DNA from: an uncultured virus (IMG/VR IMGVR_UViG_3300031963_000086)
Lineage: Duplodnaviria > Heunggongvirae > Uroviricota > Caudoviricetes
Virus record (IMG/VR): IMGVR_UViG_3300031963_000086
DNA: 64,000 bases
Direction: 5' to 3' (one strand)
Below the pieces are notes generated by a model. It was not told where the DNA came from. It worked only from the letters and a program-made list of their open reading frames with translations, and did not search any database. Position 1 is the first letter of the stretch. Each line of letters begins with the position of its first letter. The translations under genes were made by a program, and so were the position numbers. Of the stretch, positions 24,815 to 42,048 are shown in pieces.

Positions 24815-25318
24815 TTATCCGTAGTATGTATCGTATAGCGATTTTAACTCTTTGCCCGTAGTTGAAAAACGAACGGGAATAGAGGTAAACCCAAACAAGG
24901 TTTTAACCTTGAAAGTTCCAACAAAGTCCAATGGCAAATCTTTTGTAGTCAATGCACTTGCTACCAAAGTTTTCCAATTATTGAAAACCGCCTTGGGGTC
25001 AAAAGTTATTGTCATCTTAACGCGTGACTTTCCGTTCGCCTCAATAGTGGTTTCTTGTGGTTCGGTAATTGAACCGATTTGAGCATTTGATGAGAACACC
25101 TTAATATCCAAATCCTTAATGACCGCTTTAAAGTTGCTCTTATTAATGAAAGTCAAGTACACCACACCTTTTGCTTGTGGGGTAACTTGGGTCAATACAA
25201 ATCCATCTACGGAATAATCCCATTGGTTTGCAAGTAGGACATTACGATAGATATATCGTGCAAGGGCGACACCCGCAAGTGATGCACCCGTAATTAATAA
25301 AACCTTGTTCGCTTTCAT
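24815..25318 (-). CDS. Membrane-anchored LEA_2-like beta-sandwich protein
   Basis: N-terminal TM; F.NKSNF..VIKDLDIKV....IG.I......IEANGKS.V. Confidence 0.6.
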   Translation of the reverse strand: MKANKVLLITGASLAGVALARYIYRNVLLANQWDYSVDGFVLTQVTPQAKGVVYLTFINKSNFKAVIKDLDIKVFSSNAQIGSITEPQETTIEANGKSRVKMTITFDPKAVFNNWKTLVASALTTKDLPLDFVGTFKVKTLFGFTSIPVRFSTTGKELKSLYDTYYG

Positions 25319-25584
25319 TAGTCGGTAATTAAGTTATAGGCAAGGTATGTCAACCCCACCACGATGAAATAATAAGTAAATGAGTTGGGAATACCCAACA
25401 CAACGGGTTGTTTGGCGTTCAAACGCTCACTACGCATTTTCATTTCCTCAACCGCACTCCCAAATTCGGGTTGAAAGGTTTCTTGGAATTTCAATCCAAA
25501 ACTTTTGGCTTTGGCTACATCTTGGTTGAACTTTTCTTCGTCAACACCCGTGCTTTGGAAAAATGATTCAAATTGGTCTACCAT
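25318..25584 (-). CDS. Small membrane protein
   Basis: C-terminal TM. Confidence 0.55.
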   Translation of the reverse strand: MVDQFESFFQSTGVDEEKFNQDVAKAKSFGLKFQETFQPEFGSAVEEMKMRSERLNAKQPVVLGIPNSFTYYFIVVGLTYLAYNLITD

Positions 25585-26345
25585 TAGTTGTTCTTTTTAA
25601 ATAGCATATATGCACCTACAACCACTACAAGCCCAATAATACCATAGGTGAGGTATTTTGAACCCCCTTTGGTAATCGTACCCGCCAACGCATCAATTTG
25701 CGCTTGTACCGATTTTTTTTCTTCGGGCGTTTTAGCGTTTATGAGTTGGTCGTTCAACGATTTCATTTTGGCAATTCTTTCGGCTTCGGCTTTTGCATCG
25801 GCATCGGCTTGGGCTTTCGCTTTTGCATCCGCATCCGCTTTTTCTTTTAAAGCAACCGCTTTAGCAATAGCGGTTTGTAGTTCGGGAATTATATTTTGAT
25901 TTAATGCACGGATGTTTGCTTTTGCCTTACCCGCTTGTTGTAGAGTGTTTATTTCCGAAGCATCAAGTGAGTTTGAATAGCGTATTGAGTTTTGACCACT
26001 ATTCTCATTATTTTGCCATTGACCTAATTCATAATTTGCTTTTTCCAATAATGAATTTAACACATCCAACGATGTTTTTGCATCATACTTAAATATCCCA
26101 TTATAATATGATTTAGCATTTGTTTGCATTGAAGTTGTAGGTTCGGTAAGTATTTCCCACTTTTTGTTTTTTGCCGAAAGAGGATTAAGATTTCTAAAAC
26201 GACTTTTTAGTGTTTTGTCATCTATAATTGTATTGTCACCCGTTGCGCTCAAAAAGTCATCACCCGCTTCCAACATTATTAAGTTATCCTTTGAAGCGAC
26301 ACCGCTAAAGTTGTCCCATTCACTATTTGTCCAAGTTAATCTCAT
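25584..26345 (-). CDS. Virion membrane protein (coiled coil, C-terminal TM + KK)
   Basis: WDNFSG and FLSATG motifs, Ala/Lys repeat, C-terminal TM. Confidence 0.65.
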   Translation of the reverse strand: MRLTWTNSEWDNFSGVASKDNLIMLEAGDDFLSATGDNTIIDDKTLKSRFRNLNPLSAKNKKWEILTEPTTSMQTNAKSYYNGIFKYDAKTSLDVLNSLLEKANYELGQWQNNENSGQNSIRYSNSLDASEINTLQQAGKAKANIRALNQNIIPELQTAIAKAVALKEKADADAKAKAQADADAKAEAERIAKMKSLNDQLINAKTPEEKKSVQAQIDALAGTITKGGSKYLTYGIIGLVVVVGAYMLFKKNN

Positions 26346-26348
26346 GGC

Positions 26349-26876
26349 TTATTTTTTGAATTTTCTATACATCAAGAACCCTACAAGACCAACGACCAAT
26401 ACCCCGCCAATAACAAGGGCGTAAGTACCCGTTTTGCTAGTATCGGTGCTACCCGTAACGCCTTCTAACAACTTATTGAACTCGCTATTCTCCTTTTCGG
26501 TTTTGGCAAGTTCACATCCCGCATCATTGTATGCGTTCTTGAAAAAGTCCAAACGCTTTTTGTAAAGGTTTAAGTATTCTTGCTTAACACGCTTGTCACC
26601 CGCTTTGTAGGTAGACATATTCTTTTCTTCCGTGGAAATAGTACGCTCTAACGCGGAAATTTTACTCTCCAACACTTTGCAATCTTTTTTATCGGCATCC
26701 GTTAACGGCCACCACTTTTCTACATCGCCTTCACGACCCGTAGCGTAAGAATAATCTACATCGGGAAAACCATAATCGGCCTTCTTTGAGAACGCATATT
26801 CATCGGTTCGTGGTGCTTCGCTACCCGTAAATCCGAACGACATATCATCGTTTTGGTAAAATACATCAATTTCCAT
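26349..26876 (-). CDS. Virion membrane protein (C-terminal TM + RKFKK)
   Basis: FGFTG and YSYATG motifs, coiled coil, TM. Confidence 0.65.
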   Translation of the reverse strand: MEIDVFYQNDDMSFGFTGSEAPRTDEYAFSKKADYGFPDVDYSYATGREGDVEKWWPLTDADKKDCKVLESKISALERTISTEEKNMSTYKAGDKRVKQEYLNLYKKRLDFFKNAYNDAGCELAKTEKENSEFNKLLEGVTGSTDTSKTGTYALVIGGVLVVGLVGFLMYRKFKK

Positions 26877-26889
26877 TTTGTTTTTTTTA

Positions 26890-27411
26890 TTAGCCTTCCC
26901 AAGGGAATTTGTTTGTGTTTGGGTTAGTGTTCGTGTCCTTCACATTGAAGAAAGTCAACCATTTATCAATATCCGTAGTTTTAGTCAATGGCAACAAATC
27001 CAATTTGCCATAGTTACTCGCTACATATAGCATCGCTTTAGTGGTTTCTTGCCCCGCTAATCCATCGGTAGTTATTTTTGGATAACCACCACCTAATGAA
27101 GCAATTCGTTGATTTAACAAGGTTTGTACCCTTGCCACTTTTGCTTTGAATGCGCTATCGGTTTTTGCACTTGCAATAGCATCAAACGATGGTAAATATT
27201 TGCTTGGGATTTTTGAACCCCAAGTCAAACCTTCTACACCCAACGGCAAAGTTGCCAAATACTTATCGGTATAAACCACTTCTTTTTCGGGGGTCGGTGT
27301 ACCATCGCCACCCTTGCTATTTTGAACAAGTTTGATTACGATGTATGTGGCAAGTAAAGCCCCACCAAAGTATAAAGCATATTTTGTATTCTTATCTATT
27401 TTCATTTTCAT
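26890..27411 (-). CDS. Membrane protein with a possible peptidoglycan-binding motif
   Basis: N-terminal TM; VARVQTLLN...ITTDGLAGQETTKA resembles PG_binding_1. Confidence 0.55.
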   Translation of the reverse strand: MKMKIDKNTKYALYFGGALLATYIVIKLVQNSKGGDGTPTPEKEVVYTDKYLATLPLGVEGLTWGSKIPSKYLPSFDAIASAKTDSAFKAKVARVQTLLNQRIASLGGGYPKITTDGLAGQETTKAMLYVASNYGKLDLLPLTKTTDIDKWLTFFNVKDTNTNPNTNKFPWEG

Positions 27412-27415
27412 AATT

Positions 27416-27835
27416 TTATATTGCTATTACAAAATAAGGGTTAATAAGTACATCCGATTCAAAACTACCGAAGCCAAAAAAATTGCCTCCAACCTCTTCA
27501 TCGCGAACTATAATATATCCATCTTTTCTTACCCCTTTTACATATTCTTTTGAATACAACTTGCCTTGTCGGACATTATAAGTATTGCCTAAAGACCCAT
27601 CACTTTTCAAAACCCTAATCGTTGTTGGTTTAAAAACATTTAAACCCGCTTTCATAGCACTAATCTTTTGTTTTGCATTAGTAACTCTACCACTATCATT
27701 TTGACGAAGTGATTCTTCGGGCGTAGGTTCTACGGGGGCGTTATCATCGCCCTTTTTGCTTTTAATTGACAACATCAAAATGCCTCCCGCTATAGCAACT
27801 CCAATGAGGGGGTATATGTATTTATTGACTTTCAT
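27416..27835 (-). CDS. Single-TM membrane protein
   Basis: N-terminal TM + basic residues. Confidence 0.6.
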   Translation of the reverse strand: MKVNKYIYPLIGVAIAGGILMLSIKSKKGDDNAPVEPTPEESLRQNDSGRVTNAKQKISAMKAGLNVFKPTTIRVLKSDGSLGNTYNVRQGKLYSKEYVKGVRKDGYIIVRDEEVGGNFFGFGSFESDVLINPYFVIAI

Positions 27836-28017
27836 TTCTTTTCCTCCGAAATCTTTTTAATCAAGGTTTCCATTTCCGCATCCAAATTATCGGTTTTTGC
27901 ATTTGAAGTGTATGCCCCTTTACTACTTTTGTACTTGCGATAAGCAACGGCACTAACTATTCCTACCACTAATCCTAGCGATACATAGGTCAATATCTTT
28001 TTTGTATTATCGGTCAT
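27832..28017 (-). CDS. Small single-TM protein
   Basis: TM followed by YRKYK. Confidence 0.6.
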   Translation of the reverse strand: MTDNTKKILTYVSLGLVVGIVSAVAYRKYKSSKGAYTSNAKTDNLDAEMETLIKKISEEKK

Positions 28018-28478
28018 TTGCTTTTAATTAATTCATAACCCCTATACCCTAAATAGCCCAAGGACAAAGCCAATGCTCCATAAATAATTACTTTTAATGT
28101 AGTACCCTTGCCTCCAAATACACTTGCAATACTATCTCCTATACCCGATATAACATTTGATGTGTCATCAAGTATTTCTATACCACTACCCGCTATATTT
28201 AACACTTGTGGTATGAATGGAATCTTAACACTTGCATAAGTATCTAATCCCTCGGCTCTTGCGTAAGAGCGAAATGCGCTATTGAATGTTCGGCAATCCC
28301 AATGACCCGAAAAGTCACTACCTTGAGCGTAGGCGTAATTCCAAATAAGTTTCGCGCGTTCCGCACCGAAATGCGCTTTCAAACGCTTGTGCCACGCTAT
28401 CCATTCGTCACAATTCCACCAACTGTCACTACCCCATCGGTCGTAGTCGGGAACGATATTCCATGTGTTTACCGCCAT
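28014..28478 (-). CDS. Trp-rich membrane protein with C-terminal TM
   Basis: 154-aa ORF in the operon. Confidence 0.6.
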   Translation of the reverse strand: MAVNTWNIVPDYDRWGSDSWWNCDEWIAWHKRLKAHFGAERAKLIWNYAYAQGSDFSGHWDCRTFNSAFRSYARAEGLDTYASVKIPFIPQVLNIAGSGIEILDDTSNVISGIGDSIASVFGGKGTTLKVIIYGALALSLGYLGYRGYELIKSK

Positions 28479-28482
28479 CTCT

Positions 28483-29271
28483 TTATTGTATTACCATGTT
28501 CATTTTTTCAAAGTCGTTAATGAACTTGTTAATCAAGTCGTAACGCGCTTTGTTTTGTTGTGTGGGCTTTTCCTTAAAGGTTTCCAAGAACGCTTGGTAC
28601 GCTTCAATCCTTGGGTAGCCCAACCCAAGATAAATTAACAATCCGTTCAAATCCGCTTCCATTTCATCATCAATACGCTCATTGAGGTAAAAATGTGAGA
28701 ACTCATGTAACAAGATAGCCATTCGCATAGGAATGGTGAACTTATCAAACGCGGTCTTTGAAACTTGAATCATACCGCTCTTGCGACCGATACGCGCGGG
28801 TGTCGTTAACACTTGACCATTTTGACCAACGATGGTTTTAACATAGTTGATGAAATAGTTTCCGTCATCACTTTGGTAAGTGGTGTTGGTAGCCAAAGTC
28901 CCCGCATTGAATGAGAACTTTTGTGCAAAGTCCACAAAATTGCGAATTTGCGCGTTCCCAATATCGCTCAAGTCAATTCTCCGCTCTAGTGGTGCTTTAA
29001 CAACCGAATCAATGGTGAATGATTTTTCGTCATCTTTTTTCACACCTTGACCTAATCTATCGCTATATGCTTCGATAATAGTCACATCGGGCGTAAGGGG
29101 CATACGAATATGGAAAGTTTCCGTTCCATTTATCGTTTTCCAACGCTCGGTGAACTTTCTCTCATAGTTGGAAGAGTCATACACCTTAATGTGAATCTTT
29201 TCCGCTTTTGGCGTAGTGATTTTCACAATCAAAGTGAGGGGCGCATAATCCGTAGTTACTCTATATTTCAT
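28483..29271 (-). CDS. Zincin metallopeptidase (HExxH), candidate maturation protease
   Basis: AILLHEFSH...EMEAD. Confidence 0.75.
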   Translation of the reverse strand: MKYRVTTDYAPLTLIVKITTPKAEKIHIKVYDSSNYERKFTERWKTINGTETFHIRMPLTPDVTIIEAYSDRLGQGVKKDDEKSFTIDSVVKAPLERRIDLSDIGNAQIRNFVDFAQKFSFNAGTLATNTTYQSDDGNYFINYVKTIVGQNGQVLTTPARIGRKSGMIQVSKTAFDKFTIPMRMAILLHEFSHFYLNERIDDEMEADLNGLLIYLGLGYPRIEAYQAFLETFKEKPTQQNKARYDLINKFINDFEKMNMVIQ

Positions 29272-29477
29272 ACCGCTTTCCTAACTTCTTCGGGGGTTGC
29301 TTTCACATCCACACCACCAACTTTCAATTTATTTAATGCTCGCGTAATCGCATCTCCGTTACCATTATCGGCATCCAAAGGTGCTTTAACGGGATTCAAA
29401 GTCCCCCTATTAGAATAGATGACTATTGCTACACCCGCAACAACGAGTAGGGTTACTATGTCCTTCTTTTTAAGCAT
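29268..29477 (-). CDS. Small single-TM protein
   Basis: N-terminal TM. Confidence 0.55.
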   Translation of the reverse strand: MLKKKDIVTLLVVAGVAIVIYSNRGTLNPVKAPLDADNGNGDAITRALNKLKVGGVDVKATPEEVRKAV

Positions 29478-29757
29478 TGTTTTTATATGTCTTGTACAAA
29501 AAATACACGCCTACGGCTACAACTCCTATGATAAGAAGATTTTTTCCAATGACGCTACCAACCTCAATCTTCTTCTTAAAAAAGTCGCCTCCATCCGCAA
29601 TAGCAGTATCTTCACCACCATCCGCGTTGTTAAATTCTTCTTGTGCTTGAATATTAGGTATAAACTCACCTTTGGCTTTCTCCCTTTCTAACCAATCTTT
29701 GAATGGCAAATTAGAGCCACTACTTTTCCATAGACGATTTGCGCTTATCATAGTCAT
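29470..29757 (-). CDS. Small membrane protein (LWKSSGSNLPFKDW, FNNADG)
   Basis: C-terminal TM + YKTYK. Confidence 0.6.
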   Translation of the reverse strand: MTMISANRLWKSSGSNLPFKDWLEREKAKGEFIPNIQAQEEFNNADGGEDTAIADGGDFFKKKIEVGSVIGKNLLIIGVVAVGVYFLYKTYKNNA

Positions 29758-29761
29758 TTAA

Positions 29762-30232
29762 TTAAGGTCTATTCCAAGAGCGAACAAGGTTTTCTAAGCG
29801 AAGACCGCCCATATCACCATCGAAAGGTTTGAATACCAAACCACCGCTCAAGCCCGTAGACATTTGAGATTGTGATACGCTACCCGTGCTATATGTAGGG
29901 GTTGCACTACCACCTTGACTAATTGGAACGATACCGCCCGTGTTACTAACACCTACGCCCGATTGCGCACCCACACTTGTGGATGAAGTTGAAGCGGGGG
30001 TTGGTGTAGTGTCTTTCTTAAACAAAGTCCCATCAATGACACGCCCTTGATTGGGATTTACAATCGGAGGAATTGGAGGCAAAGGAGGCATTGGGCCAAT
30101 AGGGCCAAAACCACCACCACCGCCACCGCCACCTTGCTCTTCTTGACCTTGGGGCTTTTTAGTGTATCGGTTGTACAAAAAGATTGCACCAACGGCAACC
30201 GCACCATACAATAACAAATTATTATTATTCAT
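29762..30232 (-). CDS. Membrane protein with poly-Gly and Pro-rich linker
   Basis: Start at MNNNN; N-terminal TM. Confidence 0.6.
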   Translation of the reverse strand: MNNNNLLLYGAVAVGAIFLYNRYTKKPQGQEEQGGGGGGGGFGPIGPMPPLPPIPPIVNPNQGRVIDGTLFKKDTTPTPASTSSTSVGAQSGVGVSNTGGIVPISQGGSATPTYSTGSVSQSQMSTGLSGGLVFKPFDGDMGGLRLENLVRSWNRP

Positions 30233-30309
30233 CTTTTCAAAAATAAGGTTTTTTAAATTAAAAATTAGGGTGAGCAAAAACCCACCCTAACCTTAACGAT
30301 TCGTTCTAA

Positions 30310-30399
30310 TTAAGCCTCGGTTTTTGGCTTCTTGAAAACGAAGTAAAGTACACCCGCAACTACGGCAAGGGTCAATACAGTTTTAGTGGTTTTGTTCAT
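30310..30399 (-). CDS. 29-aa single-TM protein (MNKTTKTVLTLAVVAGVLYFVFKKPKTEA), not in the ORF track
   Basis: Manually translated; same TM+KK design as its neighbours. Confidence 0.65.
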   Translation of the reverse strand: MNKTTKTVLTLAVVAGVLYFVFKKPKTEA

Positions 30400-30403
30400 A
30401 GTA

Positions 30404-30622
30404 TTATTTTTTTAAGTTGTTTAAGTTTAATGTGCGCGTTGACGGAAACACATTTTCTACCGCCATATCCGCATAAGAGTCGTCCTCACCCGAAAAATTA
30501 TCAAATGATTCACCTTTGTTGTTTGACGCACTATCAAGTACCCCATCCTTTTGGGAAATCAAGTAGAGGGCAACACCCGCTAAAATTATTCCACCAATCC
30601 AATATTCTTTTTTCATATTCAT
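30404..30622 (-). CDS. Small single-TM protein (FDNFSG motif)
   Basis: N-terminal TM. Confidence 0.6.
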   Translation of the reverse strand: MNMKKEYWIGGIILAGVALYLISQKDGVLDSASNNKGESFDNFSGEDDSYADMAVENVFPSTRTLNLNNLKK

Positions 30623-30623
30623 A

Positions 30624-30848
30624 TCAATCTTTGTAAAATAGAAAGTAGTTCACTACACCTCCACCAACCGCACCTAAAATAGCGGTCACATAAAGGTTCT
30701 TTTTGTAGTACCAACCATACATAAGACCTACAACCACTCCAACCGCGCTACCTTTAATGGTACTACGGGTTTTTTGGATGAATGTATCGTGAGCATCTTG
30801 ACTTTTCAAGGTTTTCACATTGTCTAGTGCATCTTGGAACTCGCTCAT
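30624..30848 (-). CDS. Small two-TM protein
   Basis: Two Gly-rich hydrophobic helices. Confidence 0.6.
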   Translation of the reverse strand: MSEFQDALDNVKTLKSQDAHDTFIQKTRSTIKGSAVGVVVGLMYGWYYKKNLYVTAILGAVGGGVVNYFLFYKD

Positions 30849-31156
30849 TATTTTGTTGTTACGACTTTATAAACGATATATCCCAATATGGCAAGTGCGC
30901 CATAAAACAAGAAACTACCTTTTTGTTGTTTGGTAATTGCCGTGTTTTGTGGTGCATCCATAATCAATTCTACATCCGTTCCAACTATTAACTTTTTACC
31001 ATTATAATTTACCTCTTTTATTACACCCCCAAGAGGGGCTTCAACCTCTATAATTTGACCTTCTCTAATTTGGCCACCCGTAATGCTATTAATTTCGACC
31101 CCACCCAATTTATTATTAGAAAGAGGATAGAAAGATTTTAATACCTTGGCTCTCAT
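30848..31156 (-). CDS. Membrane protein with C-terminal TM
   Basis: ORF in the operon. Confidence 0.6.
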   Translation of the reverse strand: MRAKVLKSFYPLSNNKLGGVEINSITGGQIREGQIIEVEAPLGGVIKEVNYNGKKLIVGTDVELIMDAPQNTAITKQQKGSFLFYGALAILGYIVYKVVTTK

Positions 31157-31159
31157 AGA

Positions 31160-31786
31160 TTATTTCTTTTTGTAGAAGTAAACGGCTACACCAATTAAAG
31201 CAATTGCACCCACACCAATCAATACCATAGTGGTTGTGCTAATACCTCTTGTTTGTGGCGGTTGTTGATTCAACTCCCCACGACCTAAGTCAATATCCGA
31301 ACCTACATTTGAAGCGGGTTGACCCGTTTGCTTGATACTCCAAACATTCAAACCCGTGTTAATACCACTTTGAATAGTTTCGGGCGTGAATACGCTTGAA
31401 AGGAAACCACCAAAGGCGGTATCTTTAAAACTCTTTTTTGAAGAAGTAGTAATAGGTTTTGAAGTTGATGTAATAGGATTTGGGATATTTGACAAGTTTA
31501 CATTTGAACTAGTTCCGCCTATACCACGACCCGATGGCAAATCGTCACCAACCGCATTAGAATAACTTTCCATTGCTACACCACCCGCCAATTTAGCGAA
31601 GTCGTTACGGAATGGCTCACTCTTTGGCAACAAACTACCAAAGGCGGTTTCAATTTGCTTTTTAGTTGGGTTTGCGGGTAGCATCACTCCGTGCTTACGG
31701 ATAATGCGAACTACCTCGTTTGGCTTCTCATCAATGGTTAATGCCGTAATAGCATAAACTTGCTTCGGTGATAATTGTTGGTTCAT
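31160..31786 (-). CDS. Virion membrane protein (YSNAVG, C-terminal TM + KKK)
   Basis: 208-aa ORF. Confidence 0.65.
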   Translation of the reverse strand: MNQQLSPKQVYAITALTIDEKPNEVVRIIRKHGVMLPANPTKKQIETAFGSLLPKSEPFRNDFAKLAGGVAMESYSNAVGDDLPSGRGIGGTSSNVNLSNIPNPITSTSKPITTSSKKSFKDTAFGGFLSSVFTPETIQSGINTGLNVWSIKQTGQPASNVGSDIDLGRGELNQQPPQTRGISTTTMVLIGVGAIALIGVAVYFYKKK

Positions 31787-34209: not shown

Positions 34210-35219
34210 TATTTTTTCCTCCTACCCCTTGGCTTTACATCACCCTTGGCAATATCTTCCATTTGTTGTAAAATGGCTTCATCACCGAATTGGGGTGCGG
34301 GTCGTCTTTGACGGCTTCTTTTAATTGGCTCGTCTACTACAATCGCCTCTTGAATTGGCTCTTCTTTTATTACTACAACCTCTTCGGGTTCAACATACTC
34401 ACGCTCTTGTTTTGCCTCTCTTTTGGGTTGGGGTGCGGGTTCTTCATATTGTTGAGTAGGTTGTGTGGGTTGTGTAGGTTGACTTGGTGGTGGGGTACTA
34501 CGGGGCGCACCGCCACTCATATCCTTTAATGCTTCCAACAATGAAGCGTTTTGTTTACGCAAACCATATATAGTTGCACCTTTGGTCAAAATGTCCACAC
34601 CGAAATAGTAAGCCAACAATTGCTCATCGGTCATACCGATACCGCGCTTCATCAATACGCGAATCAATACGGGTCTTACCTTATCAATAAATTCGGGGCT
34701 TACCGAAATTACATCCTTGGTTTGGGAATTGTATTCGTTTACATAGTCAAGAATACCGATGTTTTGCCCATTGATTGGCAAAGTGATGTTGGGGTCTATT
34801 TCCCCTTTGCGCATCAAGTCCTCAATCTTGTTTGCGTCAAATTGAATCAACTTGTTACCAAAGCCGTTCAATTGAGAATACCCATCAAGTACGGCATCGG
34901 CTAGAGCGGAACTCGCAGCCTTTTGGTCTTTTCTATCCAATTGCTCTACATAAGGGTTCGCGCTACCCATGTCCTCATCGGATTGACCCCATACTTTTCT
35001 ATCGTCAATATTAGCACCTTGTCCTCCACTATTTTGTGCATCAAACCCACTTTGCAATTCCTCAAAAGTTGGGGGTGTAAAAATAGGTTCGGCAATAGGG
35101 GTCGCATCCACAACCTCAACATTGGGTCGCGTATAAGGTCGTTGCTTTACATTCTCTTGTAACGGGTTATAGTCCGCTTGGAACTCCGCATTAGTTTCAA
35201 ATGATGTCGTATTTTCCAT
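34209..35219 (-). CDS. Hypothetical protein coupled to the packaging ATPase (acidic, Pro/Gln-rich, basic C-terminus)
   Basis: 336-aa ORF, stop overlaps the ATPase start. Confidence 0.7.
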   Translation of the reverse strand: MENTTSFETNAEFQADYNPLQENVKQRPYTRPNVEVVDATPIAEPIFTPPTFEELQSGFDAQNSGGQGANIDDRKVWGQSDEDMGSANPYVEQLDRKDQKAASSALADAVLDGYSQLNGFGNKLIQFDANKIEDLMRKGEIDPNITLPINGQNIGILDYVNEYNSQTKDVISVSPEFIDKVRPVLIRVLMKRGIGMTDEQLLAYYFGVDILTKGATIYGLRKQNASLLEALKDMSGGAPRSTPPPSQPTQPTQPTQQYEEPAPQPKREAKQEREYVEPEEVVVIKEEPIQEAIVVDEPIKRSRQRRPAPQFGDEAILQQMEDIAKGDVKPRGRRKK

Positions 35220-35239
35220 ATTTACTTATTTATTCGTTA

Positions 35240-35689
35240 TTAAATTTTTTCCGCGAAATCGTTCTTTTCTAAATACTTACCCAAGTTTTTTCTACTAGTT
35301 AGTAGTTTTTCGTGAATTTTTTTGTCAAACGTGGTTTCGTTGGGGTAATCTTCTATTAGTTGCTTGGCCTTGCTAATAGTTGACATTGATGAGTGTGTGT
35401 ATGCGCTCAAGTCCGATAAGCCATAGTTTAGGTCAACATAGCAAATGTAAACCCAACACGCAAAGGCATATTTCCTTGGGTACTTACGACTCTTCCCGAA
35501 TAGAACCTCCGTTGGTATGTCATACGCTTCGCATACGGCCTTGGCCACCAATGATAGGTCACTTTTCCAAAGAACCCCTTGACTTCCTTTTTTTAAAATA
35601 GAAATGGTTTGAATAAGACCGACCTCCGAGAGTGTATCGCTTATTGCGGAGAAAAGGTTTTCAATTTCCCGTATTTTCGTTGTTGTCAT
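35240..35689 (-). CDS. DnaA C-terminal HTH-like DNA-binding protein
   Basis: VAKAVCEAYDIPTEVLFGKSRK..R.....Y......LSDLS......STIS. Confidence 0.65.
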   Translation of the reverse strand: MTTTKIREIENLFSAISDTLSEVGLIQTISILKKGSQGVLWKSDLSLVAKAVCEAYDIPTEVLFGKSRKYPRKYAFACWVYICYVDLNYGLSDLSAYTHSSMSTISKAKQLIEDYPNETTFDKKIHEKLLTSRKNLGKYLEKNDFAEKI

Positions 35690-36059
35690 TGTCAATAAAT
35701 ATTATTTTACCCTCTTCGCCCCATATTTTTTTTGCCACTATGGAGTGAATACCTTGGTCGCCTTGCGGACACAACACGTCAAACACCGCTTTCAACATAT
35801 TGTCTATGTCGGGTTTTACTTGATGTGGCTTTCCATTCATCGCCAAACGCTTTTTGTTTGACCATGAACTCGGCATTGGCAATACAAATATAACATTTAC
35901 ATCGTCTTTTAACACAAATTTGTGCATTAAAGCGTATGCTTCAATTCCTTGCTTCACAAGGCGATATTTAAGTATCGGGGTTCGGGGTGGCTTTAGCCAT
36001 TTGTCCCGTTGCGTCATACGGGGTTTACCCATTGGGGTAACTAAAAACTCATAGTCCAT
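35661..36059 (-). CDS. rusA: RusA-family Holliday junction resolvase
   Basis: PMGKPR, KPDIDNMLKAVFD, D..I, KKIWG. Confidence 0.85.
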   Translation of the reverse strand: MDYEFLVTPMGKPRMTQRDKWLKPPRTPILKYRLVKQGIEAYALMHKFVLKDDVNVIFVLPMPSSWSNKKRLAMNGKPHQVKPDIDNMLKAVFDVLCPQGDQGIHSIVAKKIWGEEGKIIFIDNDNNENTGN

Positions 36060-36696
36060 ATTTGGTCGTAAATTCTTTTGATTGAGCAATTGCTTTTGCG
36101 CAAAACACCCCAAAGTCATTATCGCTTGGAAAGTGTAAACCCAAAAACATTCTACTAATCATTATATCGTGTGTCAAGTTTTTTAAGAACTCATAATGTT
36201 CGGGATATTTATTCCCAAGGAGTTCGGTAAACAATCGGGCTTGAAAAGAGTGTCCGCTCGGATAAGAGGGGCTTATAGCCGTAATGCTTTTGTATGGAAA
36301 CAACTTCGCCTTGTAATATTGAGCCACTTGATAAGGGCGAGGTCGTTGGTAATGAAATTTTAATTTGAGTAGGAGAAATTTAGAATCTTCATTTAGTTCG
36401 TCAATTTCTTTGTCAAGGTTTACGCCAATCTTTTCGGTTGCGTATTTTTTAAAAATGCCCACCAAGTCATCGTTGTAAGCGATGTACCTCCCTAAAAGTT
36501 TTTCGTCTTGTTGTTCGGGGGTATTTTGATACGCGATTAATTCGCGCAACTCATCTTGTGTTGCTTCGCTATCGTTGGGTGAGAAAGGGTAGTCCTTTAA
36601 ATTTTCGTAAACGGATTGATACGCCCCATTTTTTAAATAGGGCAAAAATTCATCTACGGGGTTTCCATACGTTACGTTGTTAATCCAAGGATTCAT
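36049..36696 (-). CDS. PAP2-superfamily phosphatase
   Basis: K...RPRP, PSYPSGH, SR..LGLHFPSD. Confidence 0.85.
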   Translation of the reverse strand: MNPWINNVTYGNPVDEFLPYLKNGAYQSVYENLKDYPFSPNDSEATQDELRELIAYQNTPEQQDEKLLGRYIAYNDDLVGIFKKYATEKIGVNLDKEIDELNEDSKFLLLKLKFHYQRPRPYQVAQYYKAKLFPYKSITAISPSYPSGHSFQARLFTELLGNKYPEHYEFLKNLTHDIMISRMFLGLHFPSDNDFGVFCAKAIAQSKEFTTKYGL

Positions 36697-37036
36697 ACTT
36701 ATCGCCCATTGTCTTTTTGACATTCATCTTTATTTCGTTGATGTCTTTTCTCATATCGGCATCGTCTTTGTCCAATTTGAGCATGGTTTTGCGATTTGTT
36801 AGAATTTGCATGATTAACGAGGTAAGTGTCAACCCGATAATACCAATCGCTATCCATTGACCCCAATCTTGAGAGCCATCGTTTTTGGTTTCGGGGGCTT
36901 GTTCACCACCATCGTTTGTATTCCCCCCTTGGGCCATTTCCGTTGCCGAAGGTACGGGCGTTGGCGGTACTACGGGATTTGCCACTTGGGTAGCGTTCAT
37001 CGCTTCACCCGTTGCCACTTGTGTTGTTGCTTCCAT
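36680..37036 (-). CDS. Membrane protein (MAQGG, TM, coiled coil)
   Basis: 118-aa ORF. Confidence 0.6.
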   Translation of the reverse strand: MEATTQVATGEAMNATQVANPVVPPTPVPSATEMAQGGNTNDGGEQAPETKNDGSQDWGQWIAIGIIGLTLTSLIMQILTNRKTMLKLDKDDADMRKDINEIKMNVKKTMGDKYESLD

Positions 37037-37530
37037 TATGCTATAAATTTAATGATGTTACCTCTTCGCATTACCGACCGATATTGACCATTCTTTACGG
37101 GTTGTGATTTTCCCGTAAATTCAACTTTGGGTTCGGTTGCTTGGATAACCTCTCTTTTAATCTCCTTGATGTCCTTTTTGTAGTTTCGGTAGATAACACC
37201 TATCACCGCCCCCGCACCAACTACGAGTAACCCAATCTTGGCTTTATCGCGAACATCGCCCTTTGTGTAATACATTGCACCCAATACTAGTGTCCACCAA
37301 ATTGGGTTGTAGAGGTAATACGCACTTGCGGTTCGTGACCAATACTTTTGTGGGGTTATTTCCCCCGCTTTCCATTTGTCACGGAGTTTCTTTTCCGTGT
37401 GAAAATAAAGAGCGTCTGCGGGAGTCGGGATAATATCGGACAATATCAATCCAACCGCCCCCGCATAGAGTACGCCATTGGAGTATTTCCCCTCGGTAGA
37501 TTTAACGATTTCGGAAAATACCTTGTGCAT
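37036..37530 (-). CDS. Multi-TM membrane protein
   Basis: Three hydrophobic segments. Confidence 0.6.
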   Translation of the reverse strand: MHKVFSEIVKSTEGKYSNGVLYAGAVGLILSDIIPTPADALYFHTEKKLRDKWKAGEITPQKYWSRTASAYYLYNPIWWTLVLGAMYYTKGDVRDKAKIGLLVVGAGAVIGVIYRNYKKDIKEIKREVIQATEPKVEFTGKSQPVKNGQYRSVMRRGNIIKFIA

Positions 37531-37533
37531 CGC

Positions 37534-37644
37534 TTACGCTTTTTTCCACGCTTTACCCGCTACATAAAATGTAACATAGATAACGCCCAAACTCAAGGCA
37601 AGTCCTAGAACCGCCATTGGCCAATTAGTTTTTTGAGTGTCCAT
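37534..37644 (-). CDS. 36-aa single-TM protein (MDTQKTNWPMAVLG...), not in the ORF track
   Basis: Manually translated; TM + WKKA. Confidence 0.6.
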   Translation of the reverse strand: MDTQKTNWPMAVLGLALSLGVIYVTFYVAGKAWKKA

Positions 37645-37645
37645 A

Positions 37646-37822
37646 TTATTTTTTCTTTTTGGTTTTTGCTACTTTGACAATCTTTGCATCCATTGCCTTG
37701 AACGCACTTGTGTTGGTCTTAGCCCCTACCACCGCGTAATACTTGGCGGTCTTTGCTTCCTTTTCCGATGTGAATACTTCACCGAAATAGTTTTTATTAC
37801 CCGACTTTACTATGTATGGCAT
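37646..37822 (-). CDS. 58-aa basic protein (MPYIVKSG...), not in the ORF track
   Basis: Manually translated; fills the gap exactly. Confidence 0.55.
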   Translation of the reverse strand: MPYIVKSGNKNYFGEVFTSEKEAKTAKYYAVVGAKTNTSAFKAMDAKIVKVAKTKKKK

Positions 37823-38046
37823 TATTTTTCCGTATTAGGTGTGTCAATTTTACTTGCACCAAAGTAGTAACTTACAATCATAGTCACCACCGATAATACG
37901 CCACCACTAATGGTGTAGTAAATATCTTTTTGGTCGCTTGGGAAATCCCAAAAAATGATAGAGAATAAAACGCTAAAGCCCAATAGCAAAATCAAAAATG
38001 CGATAATCGGGGTTGCGTATTTGGTTAATAGTTCAAGAAATTTCAT
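37822..38046 (-). CDS. Two-TM holin-like protein
   Basis: Two TMs ending in SYYFGAS. Confidence 0.55.
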   Translation of the reverse strand: MKFLELLTKYATPIIAFLILLLGFSVLFSIIFWDFPSDQKDIYYTISGGVLSVVTMIVSYYFGASKIDTPNTEK

Positions 38047-38057
38047 ATTGTTAATTT

Positions 38058-38333
38058 TTATTCAGCGTTTTCAATATACCAATCTTTAAAAGACAATTTA
38101 CTACCCGATTGCTTCCATAAGTTTTCATACTTAGCACGTTTCGATTCCAAAAGTGTTTTAACCTTAGCCATAGAATCATCGCTAATGTCTTTTGGAATAA
38201 GTGGTACGGGCTGACCATCGGGAGTACGAATTGTATTATCTAATGTATTTTTACCTTTCACTAGTTTATACACCACAAATATAGATACCGCACCGATGGC
38301 AATATAAATTAGTGTCTTTTGATTGTTGGTCAT
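38058..38333 (-). CDS. Single-TM protein (LWKQSGSKLSFKDW)
   Basis: Start at MTNNQK after a TATATTTG box at 38338-38345. Confidence 0.6.
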   Translation of the reverse strand: MTNNQKTLIYIAIGAVSIFVVYKLVKGKNTLDNTIRTPDGQPVPLIPKDISDDSMAKVKTLLESKRAKYENLWKQSGSKLSFKDWYIENAE

Positions 38334-38348
38334 ATTACAAATATACAA

Positions 38349-38780
38349 TTACTTTTTATATAGGCGATAGAACTCAAAATCGGACTCCCCACCATTCTTT
38401 TTATACTCAAGCCACTCTTCATACAAAGGCCCCGCCAACTTAGCCTCTTCGGGTTCTCCAACTATTACTCCCGTATCTAATCCGACCTCAATCATCCGCG
38501 CGGAAAATACCTCTACTTTGGCTTCAACAACTTTTAATTCTTCGGTTGCTTTTTCTAAATTTTCTTTGAGTTCTTTTTTCTCTTGAACTTTGCTCTCTAC
38601 AAGTTTTTCGCCTTGGGCTTTTGCCACCGATGTAACGGCCGATGCAAGTTGGAGATTGCCCTCAATTTTTTTAAGCATTTGCTCAACTTCATCCACGGGC
38701 GGTTGGTTCACCGCACCCAATGGCATGAATATTTCAAACCCAATAATTATGGCTAGGAAAATAAATAGAATGTGTTTCAT
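38349..38780 (-). CDS. TM + coiled-coil protein (spanin-like?)
   Basis: N-terminal TM and long coiled coil, in the lysis cluster. Confidence 0.45.
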   Translation of the reverse strand: MKHILFIFLAIIIGFEIFMPLGAVNQPPVDEVEQMLKKIEGNLQLASAVTSVAKAQGEKLVESKVQEKKELKENLEKATEELKVVEAKVEVFSARMIEVGLDTGVIVGEPEEAKLAGPLYEEWLEYKKNGGESDFEFYRLYKK

Positions 38781-39061
38781 AATTTTTTCATGGTGTTAAT
38801 AATACGGAGTTCGGTAATAGCGGATGCAAGTGCCGAATCGGACTTTTTTAGCGCATACGCTAGTTTGTCAATTTTAGTATCAAGAGCATCAATTTTCTTG
38901 TTACTATTTTCAAGTTGTTCGGTGTATGATGACTTCACATCATAATACAAGTACGAAACCCCCACCAAGGCAAGGAACGCTACACCCGCTACGGGGTTCT
39001 TCCTAAATTGTTCAAACGAAATGGGGAGTGGGTTTGCGGTTGGTTTTTTAATTGCACTCAT
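38777..39061 (-). CDS. TM + coiled-coil protein
   Basis: 94-aa ORF. Confidence 0.55.
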   Translation of the reverse strand: MSAIKKPTANPLPISFEQFRKNPVAGVAFLALVGVSYLYYDVKSSYTEQLENSNKKIDALDTKIDKLAYALKKSDSALASAITELRIINTMKKL

Positions 39062-39063: not shown

Positions 39064-39822
39064 TTATACTAATCTTTGCTTTTGAACATCAAGGAAACCA
39101 TTTACACCCATAAGTTTAACTATGTAATCTTCGGATGTCTTGATTCCCAATTGGTTTACAAGCGTTGTAGTATCGGCCGTCAATAAATTTGTATTCTTAA
39201 TCTTAGAGGTGTAGCGACCACTTCCCGCATTGTACATCACAATAATGTGGTCAAGTCGGGGTTGTCCGCTATCTCTTATGGTTTTAGCGAATAGTTGCGC
39301 AAGGTGAACCGCCCCTATCATAGTTGCGAAACCAACATCGGAAATGAGTTTGTTTCTTATGATTGGGCTACTCGTTTCAACACTCTTTAATTGCAAATAG
39401 TCACTCGCGGGATTTTGCCTAATCTTCGCGTTATTATTACTCCAAAAGTTTTGGGGCAATGGTTTTTTAATGGTAAAAACCGATGGGATAAAATTGTATA
39501 AAGGGTAAAACTTGCCAATAGTAACACCCTCTCTATCAAGTTGGTCTTTAAGAGTTTGCCATGCGGTTGTAGGGTTAATTTGCATGATTGATGGAGTTGC
39601 GTTCGTCAAAGTTTCATTCTTTGCACCCCCACTCTCTACCGAAGCAAAACCCACCAAAATCATAACGGGGACACCACTATAATTACTCGCTTGAATCATT
39701 TGTGGCATATAGTTACTCTTAACCTTTTTCACGATGGAAATGGCTTGGTCTTTCCAAGCGGGTTGCCCCGATGGAACTTGGTGTTGCTTGGTTGTAGCGG
39801 GAATTTTTATCGCGTAACTCAT
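39064..39822 (-). CDS. Lytic transglycosylase (SLT-like)
   Basis: ASVESGG (catalytic E), IMQINP.TA, MYNAG. Confidence 0.75.
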   Translation of the reverse strand: MSYAIKIPATTKQHQVPSGQPAWKDQAISIVKKVKSNYMPQMIQASNYSGVPVMILVGFASVESGGAKNETLTNATPSIMQINPTTAWQTLKDQLDREGVTIGKFYPLYNFIPSVFTIKKPLPQNFWSNNNAKIRQNPASDYLQLKSVETSSPIIRNKLISDVGFATMIGAVHLAQLFAKTIRDSGQPRLDHIIVMYNAGSGRYTSKIKNTNLLTADTTTLVNQLGIKTSEDYIVKLMGVNGFLDVQKQRLV

Positions 39823-39971
39823 ACAATTTCAATTTGTTTTATTTGAGCAATGTCTTCTTCGTTTACTCCTTGAATAGGGGTACTCTTTCTACGGAAATAG
39901 AAATACCCCACCCCACCCGCTAATAGGAGAACAAAAGAAACCAATGCTATGGTTTTTTGATTTTGGGTCAT
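39819..39971 (-). CDS. 50-aa single-TM protein (MTQKSKTIAL...), not in the ORF track
   Basis: Manually translated; ATGA overlaps at both ends. Confidence 0.6.
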   Translation of the reverse strand: MTQNQKTIALVSFVLLLAGGVGYFYFRRKSTPIQGVNEEDIAQIKQIEIV

Positions 39972-40546
39972 ACTACGGGGGGATTGGCAATAGCGATGTC
40001 GTTGCTATTAATCAAAGTGTAAGTGAAACGATTGCCTTGAATAGCCATTGCTTTTTTGCAAATTTCCATAAACTCGTTAAAGTCCTTTTCACGCTTGAAT
40101 ACTTGGCAACCCTCACTCCAATTGTTCACTTGAACGCTATCCGCACCCGCTTTGTGGATGTTAATACCGAACACGCCCTCTTGGATTTTTGTTTCATCAT
40201 ATACGCCATCCGCAACATAATCGCGGTAAACCTTAATTGGTCTATCTTGACAAACCGCGTCATACTTACCTTGGTGCTTACGAATGATGTGAGAGCCACG
40301 ATATTGCCCCTCAACTACACGAGCCGTACCCGCACCATTGTCGGTTGTGCAAGGCCACTCATGGTATTTCCATACGCCATTTTCCAAATAGGAAATGGTC
40401 ATCCAATCATCGAATGCGTTGGTTACACGCTTACCCGTTGCGCTATTGCGCACTCCTACAATGTTAACATTGTACTCACCCGCTACAAAGAACATATATC
40501 CTTTGTTAACTAATGTTTTTTCAATTTTGTCGTTATTAAAATTCAT
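39968..40546 (-). CDS. Putative endolysin, L,D-transpeptidase (YkuD)-like
   Basis: NIVGVR, N.FDD, TTD.G, FGINIH..G....NWSEGCQV (His/Cys). Confidence 0.7.
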   Translation of the reverse strand: MNFNNDKIEKTLVNKGYMFFVAGEYNVNIVGVRNSATGKRVTNAFDDWMTISYLENGVWKYHEWPCTTDNGAGTARVVEGQYRGSHIIRKHQGKYDAVCQDRPIKVYRDYVADGVYDETKIQEGVFGINIHKAGADSVQVNNWSEGCQVFKREKDFNEFMEICKKAMAIQGNRFTYTLINSNDIAIANPPVV

Positions 40547-40558
40547 ACTCTTATTGTT

Positions 40559-41107
40559 TTACTTGTAATTAAATACATATCCTTTAACCGAATGAAACTT
40601 GGGGTCTTTATTCATGTGCTTGATAAGATTAGACAAATCAACCCCCAATTCCCGTTTCACATCCGACATACAACCCCATTCTTTAATAAAACAACCATTT
40701 TTATCATATTGAATAATTGCTCTTGCATTTTTATTTTTAATTCCAAAAAACCGAGGTATTCTATCATTTTGCAAAGCGTGTTGTATATTTTCAGAATGTG
40801 TAACCCACTCTAAATTATCAATGCAGTTATTTAATTTATTGCAATCTTTATGATTTACACACCGCTTATTATCAATGTTTGGTATAAATGCTTTCGCTAC
40901 TAATCTATGTATTTCGTAGTTTTTAGAATATATAGAAATAGCGTAATAAGGGTTGTTATGTCTTGGCTTTAACATTATAGATGGGAAAATCCTTTTTCTC
41001 CCGTCTTTCATTACCCTCAACCTTTCCATAGATTTCACACGCCCCAAATTACTCACTTGGTATTCGCCATTTGTGAAATCAATATCCTTCCAAATTTCTT
41101 CCATCAT
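40559..41107 (-). mobile_element. NUMOD4-HNH-NUMOD1 homing endonuclease gene
   Basis: EEIWKDI..YQVSNLGRVKS, HRLVA.AF, VNHKDCNKLNN..NLEWVT..EN; visibly AT-richer than its flanks. Confidence 0.9.
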
Positions 41108-41424
41108 AAAGCAAGTATTAATAATGTTAACCCCCAAAGTAATTTATCGGCAAAAAAACCGCGACTACCCGCGACCTTTCTATCTTTATCGTGTCGAGTT
41201 TTGTACAATTTCCTACGCTTTTCGGCCGTTCCTTTTGGAACTTGACCGCGTTCCTCCAACCTTTTAAAAGTTGGATAGTCGTTATAACCGATAGCCCCTA
41301 CCGATGCTACTTTTTTACCGCCCTTTATGACATCTATCTTTTTCCCTTTCACGGAAGATGGCTTCACGCTAACACCAAGTTTTTTGGCTTGGGCTTTTGT
41401 ATAGTTAGTTATCTTGTACGGCAT
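41104..41424 (-). CDS. Basic protein, DUF5754-like
   Basis: KKIDV..VG.IGYNDY..RRKLYKTRH..S.GFFADKLLW. Confidence 0.55.
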   Translation of the reverse strand: MPYKITNYTKAQAKKLGVSVKPSSVKGKKIDVIKGGKKVASVGAIGYNDYPTFKRLEERGQVPKGTAEKRRKLYKTRHDKDRKVAGSRGFFADKLLWGLTLLILAL

Positions 41425-41620
41425 GATAGTTCTTATGATAATTAATCCCGTTGTAAAAAATGGTTGCAAACCCAACCGCAATAAGAGAGAATTTTATTGC
41501 GGGGTCAAAGTTGCCCTCAACTCCCGCATAAATAATTAACGGCCCTACAAATACCACATCCAACAACCGAACGGGTTGCGGGTCAAAAAGGTGATATACT
41601 TGATTAGCCGTTACTTCCAT
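41405..41620 (-). CDS. Small two-TM protein
   Basis: Q.VRLLDV.FVGP..IYAG, TIFYNG. Confidence 0.6.
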   Translation of the reverse strand: MEVTANQVYHLFDPQPVRLLDVVFVGPLIIYAGVEGNFDPAIKFSLIAVGFATIFYNGINYHKNYHAVQDN

Positions 41621-42048
41621 TACTTACTACGCATTGTGTTTACCGCACCCATTGTGATAGCCAAAACCGCAACTCCAAGAATGATACCACCTAGACCCAT
41701 TCCCTTTTTCTTCGGGGCGGGTTCATCCGTTCGTTTCGGCATTGGAGGTTTGTTTTTGCTTTCCTCTTCTTCTTTTGCCTTCTTTTCCGCTTGGGCTTTT
41801 TTCTCATTTACATCTTCATTCCAAGTTTCAATCATGTCGCAAGTTTCAAGAACGAAATCTTCATAGAAATTTCCGATGTCATCCAACTTCTCTTTTTCTT
41901 CTTCGGTTGGGTTCTCATCATACTCTTTTTGGGCTTCGTCTACTTGACTTGCAAGTTTCTTGATAGATTCGATTCTCTCTTGGAATGGCTTAGGCAAGTC
42001 GGTGATGCCACACCCGATGTTTGCCAATACTTCGTTAATTCTATTCAT
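41620..42048 (-). CDS. Acidic coiled-coil protein with C-terminal TM
   Basis: 142-aa ORF. Confidence 0.65.
   Translation of the reverse strand: MNRINEVLANIGCGITDLPKPFQERIESIKKLASQVDEAQKEYDENPTEEEKEKLDDIGNFYEDFVLETCDMIETWNEDVNEKKAQAEKKAKEEEESKNKPPMPKRTDEPAPKKKGMGLGGIILGVAVLAITMGAVNTMRSK

Follow-up and report, generated by a model that had tools for sequence, protein, structure and literature searches.

What kind of particle does a virus build when its DNA carries a packaging ATPase and a crowd of small membrane protein genes, with no recognizable tail machinery? The question is posed by a 64,000-nucleotide stretch of an uncultured virus (IMG/VR record IMGVR_UViG_3300031963_000086), here called the window, and specifically by the block at positions 24815-42048. 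Beyond about 11 kb, nearly all genes of the window lie on the minus strand, including those described below, and the block holds 37 minus-strand open reading frames (ORFs) of at least 45 amino acids (aa). We propose, with a probability of roughly 0.65, that this block is the virion-assembly module of an uncultured, widespread lineage of freshwater and marine bacterial viruses with linear genomes of about 80-132 kb, whose particle would be built like those of the PRD1/PM2/sphaerolipovirus group and not like those of tailed phages. The strongest argument for a tailless, membrane-containing virus is the gene order shared with that group together with the fold of the ATPase. Three relatives serve for comparison throughout: G004 (84.7 kb), G001 (101.2 kb) and contig C9 (132,486 bp) of the metagenome-assembled genome (MAG) G006; protein identities are given in that order.

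The ATPase gene (33397-34209) encodes a 270-aa, single-domain protein that fold and profile comparison assign to the FtsK/HerA superfamily as a B204/A32-like genome-packaging ATPase. It has no nuclease domain and is the sole packaging-type ATPase found. Its Pfam matches are weak (DUF87/HerA and AAA_22, each with E 0.0033), and PDB sequence and profile searches returned only the Walker A stretch of ClpB (E 0.011). The AlphaFold2 model, built on an alignment of 29 of the 684 homologues found, reaches a predicted local distance difference test score (pLDDT) of 90.5 and a predicted template modelling score of 0.85. When this model was searched with Foldseek, the packaging NTPase B204 of STIV2/STIV filled the first twelve places of the list (E 5.8e-9 to 7.5e-7), followed by the N-terminal domain of Zot (E 9.6e-6) and by HerA (E 3.5e-5). 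Structure comparison placed B204 nearest, ahead of VirB4, TraD and TrwB, and no terminase structure appeared among the best 50 structural matches. At the profile level, hhalign aligned the ATPase with the ORF13 packaging ATPase of P23-77 over 151 columns (probability 85%, E 6.3e-6). Taken together, structure and profile results indicate a small single-domain FtsK/HerA ATPase nearest the viral packaging branch. An earlier reading of the window from its letters alone (the sequence-only reading) had called this protein an A32-like packaging ATPase and had suggested checking whether it groups with conjugative VirB4/TraD; the call is upheld, and B204 proved closest instead.

B204 of STIV/STIV2 (Turriviridae) is the solved A32-like branch of the FtsK/HerA superfamily and the nearest structure to the window ATPase, yet identity between the two is just 15-18%, with no match at the sequence level, and the window protein has about 55 additional C-terminal residues, modelled as helices. 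STIV also differs in its archaeal host and double jelly-roll capsid protein, whereas the present lineage has a bacterial host and a genome 5-7 times larger. A tblastn search with the ATPase and the coat candidate described next found no match, and hence no cultured relative, in 50,697 phage records.

Downstream of the ATPase gene lies the gene for a candidate major capsid protein of 231 aa (32367-33062). It is the best conserved gene among the four genomes (78, 61 and 60% identity), equalled only by the ATPase. Fold modelling, the check proposed for it in the sequence-only reading, was carried out on a 71-sequence alignment, and in the resulting model the protein is a jelly-roll-like beta-sandwich (about residues 50-210) preceded by an N-terminal helix and a disordered arm (residues 17-40), with no collagen or coiled-coil shaft. 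The pLDDT is 85.8 overall and above 90 in the sandwich (residues 50-210), which at about 165 of the 231 residues amounts to a single jelly-roll-like sandwich and not to a double jelly roll. Relatives of the protein are numerous: of 1560 candidates, 1212 clusters (90% level) pass E <= 1e-3. Identity is 65-97% for the best 120 of these 1212, and Pfam domains and informative names are lacking throughout. An exhaustive search among representatives at the 50% level gave 621 at E <= 1e-3 and 308 at E <= 1e-10.

Fold searches with the coat candidate were generic. It scores equally against TNF, C1q and fibre-tip domains and against capsid proteins; a PDB profile search gave nothing under E 0.4; and the best ESM Atlas score, 0.81, is a level also reached by shuffled sequences. 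P23-77 VP16 and VP17 and PRD1 P3 fall outside the best 50 VIA-align matches, a result that does not exclude them. Thus, the jelly-roll-like fold is by itself no proof of a capsid role. Context supports a major structural role: the protein's conservation, the ATPase and a tiny membrane ORF ahead of its gene, and a terminator that closes the unit.

That unit can be outlined closely. A candidate -7 promoter box of Bacteroidota type, TAAATTTG (33276-33283), was found by motif scan. It precedes a small single-pass membrane ORF between the ATPase and coat genes (33099-33278), which probably begins in fact at the ATG of 33248 (49 aa) or of 33224 (41 aa). The coat gene is immediately followed by a strong intrinsic-terminator-like hairpin of 14 pairs, seven of them G-C (32305-32347; stem 32347-32315, then a T run). 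The sequence-only reading had described a stand-alone beta-rich ORF with its own promoter and terminator. The beta-rich fold, the promoter box and the terminator all stand; the unit, in contrast, comprises two genes and is not strictly stand-alone, since the box lies upstream of the small membrane ORF that precedes the coat gene. Contigs from RNA libraries of three lake or freshwater studies span 32282-33262, and one of 775 nucleotides corresponds exactly to 32296-33070. Their 5' ends fall at 33258-33262 (three runs), 14-18 nucleotides past the TAAATTTG box, and their 3' ends at 32282-32296, 17-31 nucleotides past the T run of the terminator. This cover is a weak hint of a discrete transcript and not a measure of expression. 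Gaps in RNA-library contig cover across 28000-37000 (X15, X16, X18) are no sign of gene silence.

A 149-aa ORF at 16879-17328 encodes a paralogue that corresponds to the last two thirds of the coat candidate. Profile-profile alignment of the two families with hhalign matched it to coat residues 92-211 over 118 columns (probability 98.5%, E 2e-15). It is kept in all three relatives, a 99%-identical copy lies on an 80,181-bp contig, and it could be a second capsid or vertex protein. A 120-aa ORF (11057-11419) with a similar-looking N-terminal motif was ruled out as a further paralogue (hhalign E 0.13). As a separate observation, the disordered arm of the coat candidate holds FVNADG (residues 18-23) and FMSANG (residues 37-42), and a small membrane protein at 29470-29757 holds FNNADG at residue 42; the block shows no enrichment of the loose pattern [FY]x[NGS][AVIM]xG (1.24 per 1000 aa, against 1.14 elsewhere).

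Gene order ties these elements to known tailless viruses. In the window the ATPase is followed by a membrane ORF of 41-59 aa, the coat candidate and then a string of small membrane ORFs (34209-31160). The PRD1 record runs P9 ATPase, gpi, P20, P3 capsid and P22; the PM2 record P9, P7, P2 capsid, P3, P4 and P8; and the P23-77 record ORF13 ATPase, ORF14, VP15, VP16 and VP17. The small ORF at 33099-33278 thus occupies the place of gpi/P20 in PRD1, P7 in PM2 and ORF14 in P23-77. According to passages of PMC8328091, the defining trait of Varidnaviria is a capsid protein with a single or double jelly roll, and FtsK/HerA packaging ATPases are mostly common to them. The module as outlined in those passages combines a vertical jelly-roll capsid (one double or two single), an FtsK/HerA-family (A32/B204-like) packaging ATPase, and an ATPase gene set beside the capsid gene amid small membrane-protein genes. 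The ATPase is present in the window, the arrangement matches the PRD1, PM2 and P23-77 records, and the capsid is represented by one single-sandwich candidate with generic fold matches. An internal lipid membrane in the virion also belongs to the module; here it would be reflected, indirectly, in the hydrophobic segments of 27 of the 37 block ORFs.

Membrane proteins are concentrated in the block. By a crude hydropathy scan, at least one hydrophobic segment was called in 27 of the 37 block ORFs, compared with 15 of the 59 ORFs in the rest of the window (Fisher p 6.5e-6). Ten of the block's membrane ORFs are anchored C-terminally, with short Lys/Arg-rich tails, and 14 N-terminally. Two or three of the 27 calls are probably false (for example that in the SLT protein described below), which leaves about 25 membrane ORFs. 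The sequence-only reading had counted about 30 small ORFs with a membrane segment and a basic tail; the enrichment is real and the number somewhat lower. Its remark that several are shorter than 60 aa is confirmed at 32175-32336, 39819-39971 and 33099-33278.

Hallmark genes of tailed phages, by comparison, were not detected. The window was searched with Pfam and PHROGs for 72 minus-strand ORFs (11-64 kb) and with Pfam only for 19 further ORFs, and neither set gave a match to a large terminase subunit (TerL), a portal, an HK97 capsid, or a tube, sheath, tape measure or baseplate protein. The sequence-only reading had advised scanning the full contig for TerL, portal and HK97 proteins; whole relatives, searched to cover the rest of the genome, gave the same result. 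With PHROGs, G004 (108 of 108 ORFs, its giant ORF cut at 5000 of 5338 aa), G001 (144 of 144) and C9 (137 of the 162 ORFs of at least 100 aa; the other 25 are all of at most 109 aa, and C9 has 247 ORFs of at least 45 aa overall) yielded no terminase, portal, HK97 capsid, prohead protease, tube, sheath or tape measure. In six-frame searches, the Pfam families Terminase_6N, Phage_capsid and Phage_portal gave no match in all four IMG/VR genomes or on C9, whereas all three were detected on C29, a prophage contig of the same MAG, which served as positive control. Within the reach of hidden Markov models (HMMs), the trio that marks Caudoviricetes (TerL, portal and HK97-fold capsid) is therefore missing from the window and its relatives. 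The earlier statement that the block has no terminase, portal, HK97 or tail genes stands for these hallmarks and needs qualifying for tails, as genes resembling fibres or spikes adjoin the block. Of the two findings that the sequence-only reading had named as able to overturn it, tailed-phage hallmarks elsewhere and a conjugative ATPase with a coat candidate that is no jelly roll, neither emerged, and the reading is supported.

The genomes are large and linear. A search with the coat gene found 57 IMG/VR loci on contigs of up to 102 kb; five IMG/VR contigs of 79.7-102.2 kb have CheckV completeness of 94-100%, and the relatives as a whole span 79.7-132.5 kb. The corresponding sizes are 43.8 kb for SSIP-1, 17.0 kb for P23-77, 14.9 kb for PRD1 and 10.1 kb for PM2, so that the earlier description of this genome as unusually large holds. 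Because G004 is colinear with the window, in reverse orientation, from about window position 3.2 kb to 51 kb, the window must hold most of its own genome, about 10-20% of which lies outside it. Contig C9, with a uniform 30-35% G+C, carries at both ends inverted arrays of the 11-nucleotide unit GGGAATTTCGT, followed by G-rich subterminal sequence, and these inverted arrays indicate that C9 is complete and linear, with inverted terminal repeats. The window itself opens with 3.4 copies of the 11-nucleotide unit CGGTCGCGGGT (1-37), and so, by analogy with C9, its first bases probably mark a physical genome end or lie close to one. A related motif occurs near one tip of G001. Protein-primed PolB (PF03175) was found neither in the four IMG/VR relatives nor on C9 nor in the window, its single match being on another contig of the MAG, and no protelomerase was found on C9 or in the four relatives.

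Where, then, does the lineage belong? It appears to work like a PRD1/P23-77-type virus, and membership could be established for no existing family. Like PRD1 and PM2, it has a packaging ATPase, a tiny membrane protein, a capsid protein candidate and a string of small membrane proteins, and with PRD1 it further shares a transglycosylase (P7 in the PRD1 virion) and a linear genome with inverted terminal repeats. In contrast, PRD1 and PM2 have double jelly-roll capsid proteins of 269-395 aa and genomes of 10-15 kb. The double jelly roll of Tectiviridae/Kalamavirales is replaced here by a single sandwich, with no second candidate in profile or PHROG searches, and the protein-primed PolB and terminal protein that PRD1 possesses were not found in this lineage.

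P23-77 and the sphaerolipoviruses (Helvetiavirae) combine single jelly-roll capsid proteins with an FtsK/HerA ATPase, and the coat candidate is likewise of single-jelly-roll size. Further likenesses are a second related beta protein, the succession of ATPase, small ORF and capsid gene, and a transglycosylase with lysis enzymes. The capsid genes of Helvetiavirae/Halopanivirales form a side-by-side pair, whereas here one candidate sits by the ATPase and its truncated 149-aa paralogue lies 15 kb away. P23-77 is also circular, and the genomes of the present lineage are 5-8 times larger. The coat profile has no profile similarity to VP16 or VP17, and the hhalign relation of the ATPases noted above contrasts with hmmsearch, in which profiles A1 (the ATPase), A2 and A4 found nothing under E 0.9 among all ORFs of SSIP-1, PRD1, P23-77 and PM2. 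SSIP-1, described in passages of PMC6356626 as having a PRD1-type tailless, membrane-containing architecture with two capsid protein types, resembles the lineage in a build that is known there and here is read from genes. Its host is a halophilic member of Bacteroidota, its genome resembles almost nothing in the databases, and neither the ATPase nor the coat profile has detectable similarity to its ORFs. The SSIP-1 genome is circular and of 43.8 kb, whereas this lineage has linear genomes of 80-132 kb and comes from fresh and marine water. Full-text literature searches found no paper describing a tailless phage lineage of such size.

Several results count against a PRD1/PM2-like particle. The coat candidate has no specific structural relative: Foldseek of its model against PDB gave no match at E <= 1e-3, a BFVD search gave 19 matches at that threshold, all with a TM score of at most 0.30, and neither sequence nor profile comparison relates it to the capsid proteins of PRD1, PM2, P23-77 or SSIP-1. 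For the ATPase, HerA and VirB4 are at most 3 Z units behind B204 as structural matches, and hhalign alignments with PRD1 P9 and PM2 P9 are confined to the Walker A region. HMMs can miss very divergent portal or HK97-fold proteins, and conserved proteins of 545, 974 and 336 aa have no assigned fold. Genes matching PHROG 'tail fiber/tail spike' families adjoin the block, and the relatives carry giant collagen-like fibre genes. The labels of 13 related MAG contigs, found in a scan with a 12-sequence alignment, spread over many phyla (Bacteroidota or Ignavibacteria in 4 of 13), as would be expected of mis-binned virus contigs. Finally, no particle has been seen, and the lineage is known from genes alone.

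Three other explanations are to be weighed. The virus could bear a membrane and have a non-icosahedral build, pleomorphic and vesicle-like or enveloped, in which case the membrane proteins would belong to the envelope, the 231-aa protein would be a trimeric TNF/C1q-like spike or fibre knob, and the ATPase would serve delivery or assembly in another way. The even scores of the coat candidate against TNF, C1q, fibre-tip and capsid proteins would allow this, about 25 membrane proteins suit an envelope, and fibre genes are abundant. Nevertheless we consider it unlikely. The order of ATPase, small membrane gene and coat gene is that of icosahedral PRD1, PM2 and P23-77; the nearest solved ATPase, B204, packages DNA into an icosahedral, membrane-lined capsid; and the 231-aa protein has an N-terminal helix and disordered arm, as in many capsid jelly rolls, in place of a collagen or coiled-coil shaft. 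Its conservation, higher than that of any other gene, would be unusual for a receptor-binding tip.

Alternatively, this may be a tailed phage (Duplodnaviria) so divergent that its terminase, portal and HK97-fold capsid protein escape the profile libraries, with the ATPase and membrane proteins as accessories. Arguing for this case are the 'tail fiber/tail spike' matches in the window and relatives, 'baseplate hub' domain matches of a 175-aa and a 213-aa ORF on C9, the large conserved proteins lacking any assignment, and a weak match of the ATPase homologues in relatives to phrog_2666, 'terminase large subunit' (E about 1e-5). Counter to this, the hallmark searches (TerL, portal, HK97, protease, tube, sheath and tape measure) were negative over 72 window ORFs and 108, 144 and 137 ORFs of the relatives, and the six-frame search, negative on the virus records, succeeded on the prophage contig that shares a MAG with C9. 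The ATPase, an FtsK/HerA protein of 270 aa, has no nuclease domain, and no terminase is among its best structural matches. The tail-labelled matches, too, consist of repeats, collagen-like or beta-helical, and of lysozyme or peptidase domains and not of tail-tube machinery: those in relatives are collagen-like repeats, beta-helix spikes and a 163-aa 'short tail fiber' match, and the two enzyme-sized C9 ORFs match only parts of the 'baseplate hub' families. We therefore regard a tailed phage as improbable. A non-viral, conjugative or plasmid-like element, in which the FtsK/HerA ATPase and the membrane proteins would form a DNA-transfer apparatus, is less probable still. The window does encode DUF932, ParB and a polyvalent ART-domain protein, and a winged-helix protein has a weak Replic_Relax match (E 2.2e-5). 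Yet window Pfam scans found no relaxase, VirB6/8/9/10 or Bacteroidota Tra family above cut-off, and where conjugative type IV secretion relies on a VirB4 or coupling ATPase that is large and multi-domain, along with a relaxase and channel proteins, the ATPase here is a 270-aa single domain nearer B204 than VirB4 or TrwB. Lysis enzymes, fibre genes, a hugely conserved and strongly terminated structural-type gene, linear genomes with terminal repeats, and 57 related loci in a viral contig collection also speak for a virus.

The remaining genes of the block can be placed around this core. At one edge of the block, an N-terminally anchored LEA_2-domain protein (24815-25318; PF03168, E 1.5e-10) is kept in all three relatives. 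It is followed by a run of small, mostly single-pass membrane protein genes (25584-32336), several of them conserved in the relatives (for example 30624-30848 and 31783-32178). The run is broken by a conserved 262-aa protein (28483-29271; 63, 50 and 53% identity) with a beta-rich N-terminal part and an HExxH motif (LLHEFSHF). This protein may be a zinc metalloprotease of the virion or of its maturation, a function read solely from the motif, since Pfam, PHROG and PDB sequence searches gave no match. A terminator-like hairpin follows the ATPase gene (33329-33356; an 11-pair stem, then a T run). Upstream of that gene is a conserved 336-aa protein (34209-35219; 50, 34 and 36% identity), acidic at the N-terminus and basic in its C-terminal tail, with a region rich in Pro and Gln; it matches no Pfam or PHROG family, and a scaffold or DNA-binding role would be a guess.

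Further along are a RusA-like Holliday-junction resolvase (35661-36119; Pfam RusA E 5.2e-12, PHROG 140 E 8.5e-20) and a PAP2-superfamily phosphatase (36049-36723; PF01569, E 1.4e-10; 57, 41 and 43% identity) in which the hydropathy scan predicted no membrane segment. A second run of small membrane protein genes (36680-39061) leads to an SLT-domain lytic transglycosylase (39064-39822; PF01464, E 7.8e-5, 22.7 bits against a cut-off of 21.3; PHROG 4067 'transglycosylase', E 8.5e-5). The LEA_2-like protein and PAP2 phosphatase named in the sequence-only reading are thus both secure, and of its several transglycosylases one was found. An HNH endonuclease (40559-41137; Pfam and PHROGs) precedes a very basic, highly conserved small protein (41104-41481; 71, 60 and 59% identity), whose DUF5754 match is weak and under cut-off (E 8e-4) and which may be a DNA-condensing or core protein. 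Two more small membrane protein genes (41405-42048) close the block.

On one side of the block lie genes of fibre or spike type. An 812-aa repeat-rich, spike- or fibre-like virion protein (21947-24385) matches PHROG 23837 'virion structural protein/tail spike' (E 5e-109) and PHROG 4636 'tail spike' (E 4.6e-87), and a 'tail fiber' PHROG match occurs at 16251-16517 (E 1.4e-8). The 1536-aa Gly-rich repeat protein at 11423-16033 is a probable fibre; it matches no Pfam or PHROG family and is 36% identical over 1213 aa to a 1233-aa protein of G001. In the counterpart position, G004 has a single 5338-aa ORF (G004 52323-68339) made almost entirely of collagen-like repeats and matching PHROG tail-fibre families with E 0. 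On the same side of the block, a cluster at 18520-21420 contains cytidylyltransferase-like and APS-kinase-like proteins, a sulfotransferase (E 4.9e-16) and a 291-aa protein of no named family, mostly conserved in G001 and G006, and suggests sulfation of a glycan or virion component.

Directly beyond the other edge of the block, a 384-aa protein (42061-43215) has a RelA/SpoT nucleotidyltransferase domain (E 7.5e-14) and is a possible alarmone synthetase; in G006 a related segment belongs to a larger, fused protein of 1178 aa. A MoxR/AAA_5-type ATPase (463 aa) and the 545-aa conserved protein (48388-51420) form a pair kept in all three relatives, and for the latter ESM Atlas allowed no family to be named, its own model being poor (pLDDT 0.34). 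The 1818-aa polyvalent protein at 52359-57815 carries DUF5661 and ART-PolyVal ADP-ribosyltransferase domains (the latter with E 7e-32) and is of a type that phages and conjugative elements carry for host takeover. A single tRNA-Met (CAT) gene lies at 58322-58394.

A Bacteroidota host is moderately supported by expression signals. A Shine-Dalgarno-like core precedes just 7 of 86 genes, with upstream regions of 46% A, and 10 of the 38 TAnnTTTG boxes on the coding strand fall within the intergenic 5.4% of the sequence, compared with none of 19 on the other strand. Scarce Shine-Dalgarno sites, A-rich upstream regions and TAnnTTTG boxes are Bacteroidota habits. One relative of the ATPase is labelled Maribacter, and the sequencing runs that contain the stretch come from lake, freshwater and 'fungus metagenome' samples.

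Returning to a tailless, membrane-lined virus, we can sketch how its parts may act together. The 231-aa protein would form the capsomers of an icosahedral shell, to which its 149-aa paralogue would add a second capsid protein or a vertex protein, and a lipid vesicle beneath would hold the small membrane proteins. The ATPase, at a unique vertex, would pump the linear genome through the membrane into a preformed procapsid. Entry would take place at the vertices by means of the SLT transglycosylase and the fibre and spike proteins, and the PAP2 and LEA_2 proteins would act on or in the membrane. The membrane, the tailless particle, the capsid role of the 231-aa protein and the Bacteroidota host are all four inferred.

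A bolder, tentative proposal, to which we give a little under even odds, is that these viruses branch off deeply, as an unclassified group, among the tailless membrane-containing viruses and have kept a single-jelly-roll capsid protein along with its truncated paralogue. Their 80-132-kb linear genomes, capped by inverted 11-nucleotide arrays and with neither a protein-primed polymerase nor a protelomerase, would replicate their ends by a mechanism not yet described for phages, and the branch would be common in lakes and seas yet missing from culture collections. Telomere-like ends with no known end-replication enzyme pose a replication question of their own.

Known tailless membrane-lined phages are small, hence the view that only the eukaryotic members of the realm grew large. 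Genomes of 80-132 kb would be two to three times that of the largest cultured phage of this build and would overlap the smallest 'giant virus' genomes. If the proposal is true, virome pipelines and culture collections miss an abundant phage type, with its 1212 coat clusters (90% level) and no match in 50,697 phage records, and a widespread bacterial lineage of this size breaks the divide in genome size between prokaryotic and eukaryotic viruses. The ATPase, the jelly-roll candidate and the membrane protein set would then provide a test case for the scaling up of capsids, and the lineage could be used to test whether single-jelly-roll shells came before double ones.

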